DNA of 64,000 nt from Escherichia coli O157:H7 (GTDB lineage Bacteria > Pseudomonadota > Gammaproteobacteria > Enterobacterales > Enterobacteriaceae). The stretch is from assembly GCF_013167455.1 (NCBI RefSeq), contig NZ_CP038328.1. One strand, 5' to 3'. Every line of letters begins with the position of its first letter. Within the stretch, counting starts at the first letter, position 1. Both the position numbers and the translations under genes were made by a program. The notes below the pieces were generated by a model that searched no databases, was not told the origin of the DNA, and saw only the letters and a list, made by a program, of their open reading frames with translations. This document shows, piece after piece, positions 9,772 through 40,910 of this stretch.

Positions 9772-9784
9772 GTCAAAACCGACG

Positions 9785-9814
9785 CCAAAAGCGTCGGTTT
9801 TTTCATGGCTATAC
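9785..9814 (+). terminator. Intrinsic terminator after aaeB
   Basis: hairpin ccgacgc-caaaa-gcgtcgg followed by TTTTTT. Confidence 0.75.
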
Positions 9815-27027: not shown

Positions 27028-28077
27028 TTAACGGAGTCTATAGCCTTCTTCTAGCACCGCCTGTGTTCGAACGAGTTCATCCGCGAGTCGTTTTTCATCA
27101 GGTAGTTGCATCTTATATTCACTCGCCAGAACGGTGTTAGGCAAACCAGCCAGTGCATAATGCGCTTCTCCGACTCCTTTCTCTGCACAGAGAACCAGAC
27201 CGATGGGCGGATTTTCATCCGGTAGCGTCCAGTGCTCTTTGGCGTAGTTGAGATACATATTCATCTGTCCGGCATCGCTATAGCTGAATTTGCCCACTTT
27301 TAGATCGACGATTAGCAGGCAGCGTAAACGGCGGTGGAAAAACAGCAGATCGACACGAAACCAGTTGTCATCAATGCGTAACCTTCGCTGCCGACCAACA
27401 AAGGCAAAATCATCCCCAAGTTCCAGCATGAAATCCATCAGGTGGTTGATCAGCGCCTCCTCAAAATCGGATTCTGAGTATTCATCTTTCAATTCCAGAA
27501 ATTCGAGCACAAAGGGATCGCGTATCGCCTGTTGCGGAAGAATATGCGTCTCGGCAGGAGCGTGTTGTTGCAGCATGGCTGATTTGTCATGTGACAGCAG
27601 TGTTCGCTCATAAAATTGGGTCGCAATTTGCCGTTCTAGCTGGCGAACAGACCAGCCACAGCGGAGCGTCTCTTTTTCATAAAAGCTGCGGGTGTCAGCG
27701 TTTTTAACGGAAAGTAAACGGACGTAAGTGGACCAGGGCAATGGTGTTAATTCGCCAGACACTGTCTGGCGAATTTCAACATGTTGAAAAAAGAGGTAAA
27801 AAAGCCTCATTTGGCGTAAGTTTTTTGCAGAGAACCCACGCTTATACCTTAGACTTAAATCCTTTGATAGTCGCTTGATTAGCTGCGCACCATACGCAGC
27901 CCTGGCCTCGCCACCTTGTTCAAATTCGACAATTCGTCGGCCAATTTCCCAGTATGTCGCGGTCATCAGCGCGTTAACGCTACGTACCGTTTCCGTCCGG
28001 GCGCTATCGACCAGGTGAATAATACCGTCGTGGATTTGCTGGTAGCCTGTTGAGGTTCTCTCTGAGAGCGATTCCAT
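27028..28077 (-). CDS. yhcG: DUF1016 / PD-(D/E)XK nuclease-like protein YhcG
   Basis: 349-aa ORF; C-terminal nuclease-like motifs ...RVDLLFF... and ...IVDLKVGK...; convergent with nanQ; begins 183 bp after the gltD stop. Confidence 0.8.
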   Translation of the reverse strand: MESLSERTSTGYQQIHDGIIHLVDSARTETVRSVNALMTATYWEIGRRIVEFEQGGEARAAYGAQLIKRLSKDLSLRYKRGFSAKNLRQMRLFYLFFQHVEIRQTVSGELTPLPWSTYVRLLSVKNADTRSFYEKETLRCGWSVRQLERQIATQFYERTLLSHDKSAMLQQHAPAETHILPQQAIRDPFVLEFLELKDEYSESDFEEALINHLMDFMLELGDDFAFVGRQRRLRIDDNWFRVDLLFFHRRLRCLLIVDLKVGKFSYSDAGQMNMYLNYAKEHWTLPDENPPIGLVLCAEKGVGEAHYALAGLPNTVLASEYKMQLPDEKRLADELVRTQAVLEEGYRLR

Positions 28078-28260
28078 TATCTTTCCCTTTATATGGCGCA
28101 GTGTTGAATAATGGAATCAGCTATACGCCGGGCATCTGCCGGTAACAATCCAGATGTGCGTATTACATTGGTTTTCTTCAGATTATGCGAGGCGCTTTCC
28201 AGAACGAAAGGAGAATTTCAGCGCCGACTCTTTTCTGAGGAGGCGGCGCTGGGACAGAGC

Positions 28261-29691
<1,431 letters not shown>

Positions 29692-40517: not shown

Positions 40518-40637
40518 CTTCTGAAAGTAAAAAGCGCACGAAATGTACAATTGACGTTGATTGAGAACGATTTCAGTACGTGATTTTCTTATTGTCGGGG
40601 GGAGTTTGAAGGGAGTTGTATGTCAAAGTGATGAAGA

Positions 40638-40910
40638 TTAATCTTCATCAAAACCAGAATTAAAGAGGGCGATAACGGCGGCCAGTGCTTCCTCTTCCTG
40701 TGGACCGGTCGCTTCAACTTCAATCTGCCGTCCTTTGGCAGAATCCAACATCAGCAGCGCAATAACGCTGTTGGCTTCAGCCTCGGTGCCTTCGTCATTA
40801 CGTAACAGCACTTCAGCGTCAAAACCCTGCATTAATTCAAACAGCTTCATTGCAGGCCGGGCATGCATGCCCAGCTTGTTTGTGATTTCAACAGTTTGCT
40901 TGACAGTCAT
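40638..40910 (-). CDS. npr: Nitrogen-PTS phosphocarrier protein NPr
   Basis: 90-aa HPr-like protein with the active-site His context GMHARPA. Confidence 0.9.

Follow-up and report, generated by a model that had tools for sequence, protein, structure and literature searches.

The gltD–yhcG junction of Escherichia coli O157:H7 is the yhc-less majority form of a known variable locus and carries a published short yhcG allele

The adjacency of gltD and yhcG in a 64,000-nucleotide stretch of the E. coli O157:H7 chromosome (the window; contig NZ_CP038328.1) is real but ordinary: at a locus already known to vary, it shows the majority haplotype, and it includes a published typing indel. We consider it very probable that the window carries the majority yhc-less haplotype of an old polymorphism, that the 5′ end of yhcG is untouched, and that yhcG has separately lost 78 bp in frame. 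On this reading, the slot where the gltBD and nan operons converge would be a long-standing structural polymorphism of which the window keeps the yhc-less form, and the K-12 form would carry a palindrome-containing segment plus the low-GC gltF-yhcADEF genes in place of the gltD-proximal 54 bp. The 349-aa YhcG would reflect a separate event, the loss of two of three 39-bp palindrome-built units. The sole unusual result is a conserved intragenic palindrome, which we report as a lead.

Architecture of the junction

The junction and its borders comprise the following features.

26504..26968, plus strand: nanQ (yhcH), last gene of the convergent nan operon and right border of the variable slot
27028..28077, minus strand: yhcG, 349 aa (open reading frame; intact CDS WP_000445155.1 in RefSeq O157 genomes)
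28078..28260, minus strand: gltD-yhcG spacer of the yhc-less haplotype, 183 bp
28078..28204, minus strand: yhcG-proximal 127 bp, presumed yhcG promoter/5′ UTR (~74% identity to the distal K-12 yhcF-yhcG spacer)
28205..28258, minus strand: gltD-proximal 54 bp, confined to the yhc-less haplotype (K-12 counterpart absent)
28219-28251: hairpin CAGCGCCG-N17-CGGCGCTG within the gltD-proximal 54 bp
28261..29679, minus strand: gltD, glutamate synthase small subunit, 472 aa (open reading frame; RefSeq annotation of identical O157 records)

A preliminary description of this DNA had placed the gltD stop at 28261 and the yhcG start at 28077 with 183 bp between them, and these coordinates are right, the stop codon occupying 28261-28263. 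The 1.8 kb around the junction are 100% identical to O157:H7 chromosomes, and GltD is 99.4% identical to its K-12 counterpart. The gene order in K-12 MG1655 is gltD-gltF-yhcA-yhcD-yhcE(IS5)-yhcF-yhcG, just as the preliminary description has it, IS5 included, and the length difference that it gives is equally accurate (YhcG has 375 aa in K-12 and 349 aa here).

The reported absence of gltF and of fimbrial genes was borne out by tblastn of the window and blastn of the spacer. Queries with K-12 GltF, YhcA, YhcD and YhcF gave no credible tblastn match across the 64-kb window; the best was a 36-aa match of YhcA at E=0.006, and all others had E>0.3. Neither the usher YhcD (PapC_N/Usher/PapC_C; best E=1.3 with K-12 YhcD) nor the PapD-like chaperone YhcA nor the subunits GltF and YhcF, both DUF1120 proteins in K-12 (E>1), were found in the window. 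Short remnants of gltF or yhcF, which the preliminary description had advised looking for at the junction, were not detected in the 183-bp spacer by blastn against the K-12 block at word size 7.

The hairpin of the 54-bp segment, with its flanks, folds with an energy of -22.8 kcal/mol. None of the three hairpins in the 26900-28400 scan was called as a rho-independent terminator (GC-rich stem plus T-run), so that their reading as canonical terminators is unsupported. A search with Rfam covariance models at E<=1, covering window positions 26400-28800 as well as the K-12 and ST131 loci, matched no known RNA family to the palindrome described below, the spacer hairpin or the K-12 spacer.

Distribution of yhc-less and yhc-containing forms

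Separate BLAST queries, whose categories are not strictly mutually exclusive, found the gltD–183 bp–yhcG junction in 3139 of 5426 complete E. coli genomes (in one piece, at least 95% identity), the full gltD-yhcG-nanQ architecture in 2416, the K-12-type gltF-yhcA arrangement, a minority haplotype, in 1123, an 'empty' type exemplified by ST131 and ATCC 25922 in 946, and a yhcG cut after ~135 codons and followed by ~480 bp of foreign DNA in 718. The probe for the junction count was 263 nt long and ran from the end of gltD across the spacer into the start of yhcG. In the empty type, the gap between gltD and nanQ measures 67 bp and contains a single palindrome. The foreign segment encodes a 101-aa ORF annotated as 'transposase', for which we found no PADLOC or NCBIfam match.

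A variable locus between the glutamate-synthase and sialic-acid genes is already known, and the window carries its commonest version. Yhc fimbriae, which belong to the beta class of chaperone-usher fimbriae, occur sporadically and, among the ETEC and K-12 strains examined, were found in phylogroup A alone (PMC5216030, PMC3559732). The K-12 block has a GC content of 39-47% versus 55-58% in its flanks. Because K-12 carries a minority haplotype, its gene order makes a poor default for comparison at the gltD–nanQ locus.

The slot was also surveyed in other species by a scan anchored on NanQ, in which one genome per species was taken and the neighbouring genes were located. Across Enterobacteriaceae, gltD and nanQ are convergent neighbours, separated in most genera merely by a terminator-like hairpin or by REPs. 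The window-type spacer together with yhcG is present in Escherichia sp. E1V33, E. whittamii, the record 'E69', the E. albertii type strain and the E. coli-labelled SCPM-O-B-8794, a GTDB species representative. The spacers of these records, which include cryptic Escherichia alongside E. albertii and E. whittamii, measure 183-184 bp and are 91-97% identical to that of the window, and a recognisable homologue (72% identity) is found in Pseudocitrobacter vendiensis. The gltD-proximal 54 bp are kept in other Escherichia and recognisable in Pseudocitrobacter. Adjacency of gltD and yhcG extends to Citrobacter koseri, C. freundii, Kluyvera sichuanensis and Salmonella enterica subsp. salamae. The collinearity of the spacer with those of other Escherichia species suggests that the O157 lineage would have undergone no deletion at the gltD–yhcG junction.

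The K-12 yhc block is missing from all NanQ-anchored species representatives. Orthologues of YhcD nevertheless occupy the gltD-nanQ slot in an E. albertii-like strain (82% identity) and in E. marmotae (67%), and this shared locus indicates that the yhc-containing haplotype is also ancient. In E. marmotae the order is gltD, a palindrome like that of K-12 (P_L), gltF-yhcADEF, a K-12-like spacer, a degraded yhcG remnant, a second palindrome (P_R) and nanQ; in the E. albertii-like contig the yhc operon is followed directly by one palindrome and nanQ. Both haplotypes are therefore ancient, each occurring in more than one species. A recent insertion into the K-12 lineage was considered and dropped, given the YhcD orthologues at the same locus in these two relatives.

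An internal 78-bp deletion in yhcG

The shorter YhcG has its origin inside the gene. Alignment showed the N-terminus to be identical to the 375-aa forms of K-12 and of O157:H7 strain 4276, and the sole gap in the window protein is an internal one of 26 aa, corresponding to aa 112-137 of the long form. The preliminary suggestion that the junction had removed or replaced the 5′ end of yhcG is contradicted by this full-length N-terminus. At the DNA level, the gap is an in-frame deletion of 78 bp (nt 340-417 of the 1128-nt allele), lying 337 nt inside the gene; apart from these 78 bp, the short and long O157 alleles are 100% identical. Strain 4276 has the same 183-bp spacer and still encodes a 375-aa YhcG, which makes the absence of the block and the short YhcG independent of each other. 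The following features mark the deletion.

27739..27742, minus strand: junction of the 78-bp deletion, with 2-bp TG microhomology
27749..27775, unstranded: unit-1 perfect palindrome AATTCGCCAGAC-A-GTGTCTGGCGAATT in yhcG, ~27 bp, codons I-R-Q-T-V-S-G-E-L
27439..27832, minus strand: LSPA-6 yhcG amplicon, 394 bp (allele 1), from in-silico PCR

In the long allele, three tandem 39-bp units encode VEIRQTVSGELTP, LGIPQTPSAEFPS and AKIWQTLSAKSFP, with perfect palindromes in units 1 and 3 and an imperfect one in unit 2. The 78 bp equal two of these units, and the window retains unit 1 alone. Replication slippage, or misalignment of in-register units stabilised by hairpins, is the most likely cause of the loss, although the junction has no more than 2 bp of microhomology. 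A 56-mer specific to this junction occurs in 239 of the 5426 genomes, which among the matches listed are O157:H7 or STEC with genomes of similar size; other O157:H7 genomes retain the 375-aa long allele.

In-silico PCR was run with the primer sequences that we take to be those of the LSPA-6 yhcG reaction, both of which match the window exactly. It yielded 394 bp in the window, whereas O157 strain 4276 and K-12 each gave 472 bp; 472 bp is presumably the size of allele 2, in agreement with the measured difference of 78 bp. The polymorphism was reportedly described by Yang and colleagues in 2004. A length of 394 b is the published lineage-I size of LSPA-6 yhcG allele 1. In the LSPA-6 assay, which has been applied in several typing studies (PMC3514354, PMC8733641, PMC4609728, PMC5320567), yhcG is locus 3. 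Allele 1 is found in EDL933 (LSPA-6 type 111111) and Sakai, and it serves as a PCR-typed marker of O157:H7 lineages I and I/II. The short yhcG of the window is this published allele and was already known. That the indel consists of two 39-bp palindromic units goes unmentioned in the typing papers (PMC3514354, PMC8733641, PMC4609728, PMC5320567), and our comparison provides a sequence-level account of an established marker.

Other length variants are in circulation. Separate 349-aa alleles have different junctions (EIRQT/ASAKSF and SGE/SFPLPW, with further forms in cryptic Escherichia), a 349-aa allele with the window-type junction exists in a K-12-like background, and additional alleles encode 358, 362, 370 and 382 aa. 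This multiplicity of lengths and junctions indicates that the yhcG array is recurrently unstable, and the independent 349-aa alleles mean that amplicon size alone leaves allele identity open to homoplasy.

The shortened protein

The 349-aa protein covers both family profiles in full, scoring 150.1 bits against DUF1016_N (PF17761; cut-off 32.8) and 191.3 bits against YhcG_C (PF06250; cut-off 32.5). The YhcG/DUF1016 family belongs to the PD-(D/E)XK group with a catalytic E...D...(D/E)-x-K motif, and YhcG is a predicted nuclease of Holliday-junction-resolvase-like type (Kosinski 2005, PMC1189080). In the window protein, the corresponding residues are E219 (LELG), D243 (RVDLLF) and D258-L-K260 (VDLK). 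YhcG also matches the profile of the PADLOC phage-defence candidate family PDC-S02 (E=4e-136); no homologue of solved structure was found by sequence search.

It is unlikely that the 78-bp deletion inactivates YhcG and that yhcG is degenerating in O157 lineage I instead of being a tolerated length variant. Disruption of yhcG does happen elsewhere: the gene is truncated in the 718 E. coli genomes with foreign DNA, in E. albertii and in E. marmotae, it bears IS and group II intron insertions in other genomes, and LSPA-6 allele 3, a frameshift variant shorter by 2 bp, is in circulation (LSPA-6 typing papers). The O157 deletion, however, is in frame and in register with the units, and the Q-to-W spacing of the retained unit matches that of the lost last unit. 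A single palindrome unit is common among YhcG homologues, the DUF1016_N score is 150 bits for the short form versus 130 bits for the long one, and the catalytic motif is intact. The 349-aa YhcG is probably functional, as judged from its retention of both Pfam domains and the catalytic motif and from its better fit to the family profile than the long form.

Other histories of the junction

Homologous recombination could also have produced the observed arrangement, if the O157:H7 ancestor was yhc-containing and the block was lost by allelic replacement from a yhc-less donor through gltD and yhcG/nan. Both haplotypes are old and present in several Escherichia species. The genes gltD, yhcG and nanQ are ~96% identical between the window and K-12, whereas the 127-128 bp that the two share upstream of yhcG differ by ~26%, as against ~4% in the flanking genes, a disparity that points to whole-allele exchange and not to recent indels. 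In Citrobacter gillenii, yhcG is flanked by a Campbell-type duplication of 94 bp of the gltD 3′ end, from which it follows that the slot does receive DNA by homologous recombination. Positive evidence for such a replacement is nonetheless absent in the O157 lineage, and the yhc-less form is the E. coli majority and matches the synteny in other genera, which makes retention the simpler reading. We regard allelic replacement as quite improbable in the O157 lineage.

It is very improbable that a lineage-specific deletion removed gltF-yhcADEF and truncated yhcG at its 5′ end or replaced that end. K-12 does have a 7-kb block and a 375-aa YhcG, and the window has neither. Against this stand the intact N-terminus and internal gap of YhcG, the pairing of the same spacer with a 375-aa protein in strain 4276, the collinearity of the spacer with other Escherichia species, the complete lack of remnants of the block, and the recurrence of the junction in more than half of the complete genomes. 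In addition, the gltD-proximal 54 bp are missing from every yhc-containing haplotype examined, and simple deletion of a K-12-type locus cannot give the O157 spacer. The preliminary description had proposed a strain-specific indel and not a novel system. The second part stands, for the variation is an allelic indel without any new system; the first does not, as the same-spacer adjacency is found in related lineages, other Escherichia included, with YhcG full length at its N-terminus. A false lead is thereby removed, with neither a lineage-specific deletion nor a damaged yhcG to explain, and the gltD–yhcG finding itself matters little.

Short-read assembly readily collapses tandem repeats and palindromes, but an assembly or sequencing artefact by which collapsed tandem palindromic units gave the short yhcG or the junction has next to no likelihood, given the exact deletion junction in 239 complete genomes, the PCR typing of the marker with a 394-bp product in EDL933/Sakai-type strains, and the correct assembly of the long allele in other O157 genomes.

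Palindromes at rearrangement breakpoints

A palindrome related to that of unit 1 lies downstream of yhcG.

26988..27012, unstranded: P_R, related perfect palindrome ATTCTGCAGAC-A-GTGTCTGCAGAAT, between yhcG and nanQ

P_R lies 15 nt past the yhcG stop, and a further copy (P_L or P) follows gltD in K-12, B2 strains and E. marmotae. A 33-nt palindrome query matched a median of 2 places per genome, equivalent to one site read on both strands, with a maximum of 5, and the matches listed all fall in yhcG or in unannotated sequence at the gltD-nanQ locus. A dispersed REP-like repeat is ruled out by this restriction to 1-2 sites per genome at one locus.

Besides the O157 deletion, five other rearrangement breakpoints fall in the palindromes of this locus. 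In the truncated yhcG of E. albertii, an internal unit and P_R are fused into a hybrid, the foreign replacement in the 718 genomes begins at the end of unit 3, and the yhcG remnant of E. marmotae breaks at unit 1. P_L forms the left border of the K-12 yhc block, and the empty allele consists of one palindrome, flanked on its left as P_L is and on its right as P_R is.

A position-fixed palindrome in the YhcG/DUF1016 family

The unit-1 palindrome is conserved beyond E. coli. In 14 enterobacterial orthologues it comprises 12 pairs, with 92% of cells paired and double changes in 4 pairs, one of which occurs as AU, CG, UA and GC; changes in the two arms thus leave it complementary. Synonymous sites in the arms are invariant, whereas over the whole gene just 20 of the 213 codons with an invariant amino acid show no codon variation. 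Distant homologues (39-61% identity, 33-53% GC) have palindromes with the same CCAGACAGTGTCTGG core at the same spot, some of them in 2-6 tandem units.

We extended the comparison to a family sample of 72 distinct genes (24-65% GC), obtained by a profile scan of viral contigs and picked blind to the palindrome. A perfect palindrome with an arm of at least 6 lies no more than 90 nt upstream of the conserved Trp codon in 62 of the 72 genes, and in 40 genes it is centred exactly 18 nt ahead of the invariant Trp of 'LSWSHY'. At least 11 of 13 symmetric positions are matched in 52 genes, for a background probability per centre of 1.7e-4 with kinship ignored. The gene-wide maximum of symmetry falls in the zone upstream of the Trp, ~8% of the gene, in 65/72 (kinship again ignored). 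The sample contains 35 distinct 27-mers. The consensus of the palindrome is AATTnnnCAGACA-S-TGTCTGnnnAATT; substitutions in both arms, choices at synonymous sites among them, preserve its symmetry, and it grows and shrinks by tandem units.

Two readings of the palindrome were ruled out. Mismatches in the arms are G.T in 27 cases and A.C in 25, and this lack of a G.T excess is not the pattern of an mRNA hairpin. The third base of the Gly codon tracks the residue in the opposite arm (Cys TGC with GGC in 8/8, xTC with GGA in 5/5), so that selection at the protein level cannot explain the palindrome, a conclusion joined by the invariant synonymous sites of the arms. A second palindrome cluster, ~250-300 nt upstream of the Trp, was set aside; it is limited to one high-GC subfamily, coincides with an Ala/Arg-rich helix and probably reflects codon composition.

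A possible reading, held tentatively and at a little under even confidence, is that the yhcG palindrome is under selection as a cis element at the DNA level throughout the YhcG/DUF1016 gene family, and that the LSPA-6 indel would be a change in its copy number. Rfam and the literature searched contain no description of such an element and no link between DUF1016 and a palindrome. More speculatively, its role may be that of a cruciform, of a hairpin or of a site for symmetric binding, conceivably by the encoded nuclease; self-homogenising quasipalindrome template switching is a candidate for its origin. Were the palindrome a selected cis element, its instability would explain the breakpoints between gltD and nanQ. 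The DUF1016/YhcG family is linked to restriction-modification loci, conjugative elements and phages, and a functional, position-fixed palindrome would offer the first experimental handle on this widespread, uncharacterised nuclease family.

Comparison with known systems

The K-12 gltBDF/yhc locus resembles the window in being a slot bounded by gltD and yhcG-nanQ. The two differ in that the window is without gltF, yhcA, yhcD, yhcE(IS5) and yhcF, and in that K-12 has the palindrome P_L after gltD where the window has the 54-bp segment. With the LSPA-6 yhcG polymorphism the comparison is one of identity, the window showing no difference from allele 1.

REP/BIME elements and terminators are, like P_R, short GC-containing hairpins between convergent genes. 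Palindrome P lies between gltD and nanQ in B2 strains, and REPs lie in Citrobacter spacers. The palindromes of the locus differ from both classes in being undispersed, with no T-run and no Rfam match.

Rickettsia palindromic elements (RPEs) are located in frame within protein-coding genes (Ogata et al. 2000, 2002, via PMC4316617). RPEs and the yhcG units are alike in that palindromic DNA is translated without disrupting the open reading frame and varies in copy number. RPEs are dispersed selfish elements of 100-150 bp, inserted in many unrelated genes of one genus. The yhcG units, in contrast, measure 27-57 bp, are undispersed, and occupy one homologous position in one gene family across phyla.

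Deletions stimulated by palindromes or hairpins, and template switching at quasipalindromes, have been studied in E. coli in the Leach, Lovett and Ripley laboratories. These systems share with the yhcG locus breakpoints in or beside short perfect palindromes, in-register deletion of units with 2-7 bp of homology, and arms that are perfectly complementary after substitution. The model systems are experimental, whereas the yhcG palindromes are described here from genome comparison; and where the model palindromes are engineered or single sites, that of yhcG is natural and is held at one codon position across a protein family.

A conserved palindrome in the YhcG family

A perfect palindrome of ~27 bp with the consensus AATTnnnCAGACA-S-TGTCTGnnnAATT holds a fixed position within the sequence encoding DUF1016_N, where its centre precedes the 'LSWSHY' Trp codon by 18 nt. 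It is found in the window at 27749-27775, within unit 1 of the yhcG repeat, and at 26988-27012, after the yhcG stop codon (P_R), as well as in comparison loci L067-L151. It recurs across 72 diverse YhcG-family genes with GC contents of 24-65%, in which substitutions occur on both arms, synonymous sites included, in a manner that preserves the symmetry, and tandem expansion to 2-6 units is frequent. The palindrome has no match in Rfam and no description in the literature searched.

A read-through yhcG allele that has lost its stop codon encodes protein P0020 (391 aa), in which P_R is translated as '...RILQTLSGES...'. Because this peptide carries the motif of the internal yhcG units, P0020 confirms that P_R is a copy of the unit.

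A high-GC DUF1016 subfamily (L139-L149) has further long perfect palindromes, with arms of up to 14 (e.g., TCGAGGCGGCGCGCAAGCGCGCCGCCTCGA), which map to the region coding for the N-terminal 'IEAARKRAAS' helix. These are probably an effect of Ala/Arg codon composition and not a second conserved element.

The window holds eight other perfect palindromes with arms of at least 10, compared with 0-1 in shuffled sequence:

9775-9801, 18211-18236, 19719-19743, 56041-56068, 58302-58326 and 60537-60559: terminator-like
40629-40650 and 54161-54185: without terminator form

By their sequence, the first six look like ordinary terminators consisting of an A-tract, a GC-stem and a T-tract, an arrangement that the remaining two do not have.

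Absence, truncation and interruption of yhcG

The following loci lack yhcG or carry it in a disrupted form:

L003:1570-1636: empty gltD-nanQ spacer, ST131
L008: empty gltD-nanQ spacer, cryptic species (Escherichia sp. MOD1-EC7003)
L005:1575-2060: yhcG cut and replaced, fourth common haplotype, E. coli MSB1_9D; 718 complete genomes
L012:10455-10870: yhcG truncation, E. albertii type strain
L154:11665-12310: yhcG truncation, E. marmotae
L006:6129-10839: IS629-family IS3 element splitting yhcG, E. coli CFS3273

In 946 E. coli genomes and a cryptic Escherichia species, the gap between gltD and nanQ measures only 67-73 bp and contains a single palindrome identical to yhcG unit 1, whose left flank is that of P_L, the palindrome following gltD in K-12, and whose right flank is that of P_R. 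The empty spacer looks like the scar of a palindrome-to-palindrome deletion, but the change could have run in either direction. A second genus was assessed by comparing Pseudocitrobacter faecalis (L019) and a Pseudocitrobacter MAG (L027) with P. vendiensis (L018). The yhcG-less spacer of the first two retains the gltD-proximal hairpin, followed by a lone unit-3-type palindrome (AAATTTGGCAGACAGAGTCTGCCAAATC) and then by about 30 nt similar to the sequence after K-12 P_L, which suggests that loss of yhcG leaves a single palindrome in this genus too.

Truncations also fall at the palindromes. The fourth haplotype has a yhcG that ends where palindromic unit 3 ends, at about codon 135, and ~480 bp with a 101-aa ORF replace the remainder as far as the nanQ stop codon. 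RefSeq names this ORF 'transposase' (WP_000639208.1); it has no match in PADLOC or NCBIfam. A similarly annotated yhcG fragment is present in BL21(DE3) and strain 55989. The truncations of E. albertii and E. marmotae are independent (n=2), with breakpoints exactly within palindromes: the former fuses an internal yhcG unit to P_R, generating a hybrid palindrome, and the latter joins unit 1 to codon ~351, with gltF-yhcADEF upstream. The IS element of CFS3273 contains a group II intron (ltrA) and sits in a K-12-type (yhc+) background.

Sequence upstream of yhcG and a signature of integration

Comparison of the K-12 yhcF-yhcG spacer (L002:9644-9827) with window positions 28078-28204 revealed ~26% divergence upstream of yhcG between the two haplotypes, versus ~4% in the flanking genes. 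In K-12, a stationary-phase antisense ncRNA, G0-10703, is reported to lie opposite the yhcG 5' UTR (PMC7967276); given this divergence, it would be specific to the K-12 haplotype.

A different arrangement was seen in Citrobacter gillenii:

L041:13250-14800: yhcG and a 250-bp upstream spacer between direct repeats

The repeat covers 94 bp from the 3' end of gltD, with the stop codon among them, and its copies are 98% identical. This layout is the signature left when a circular gltD'-yhcG fragment integrates by a Campbell-type event.
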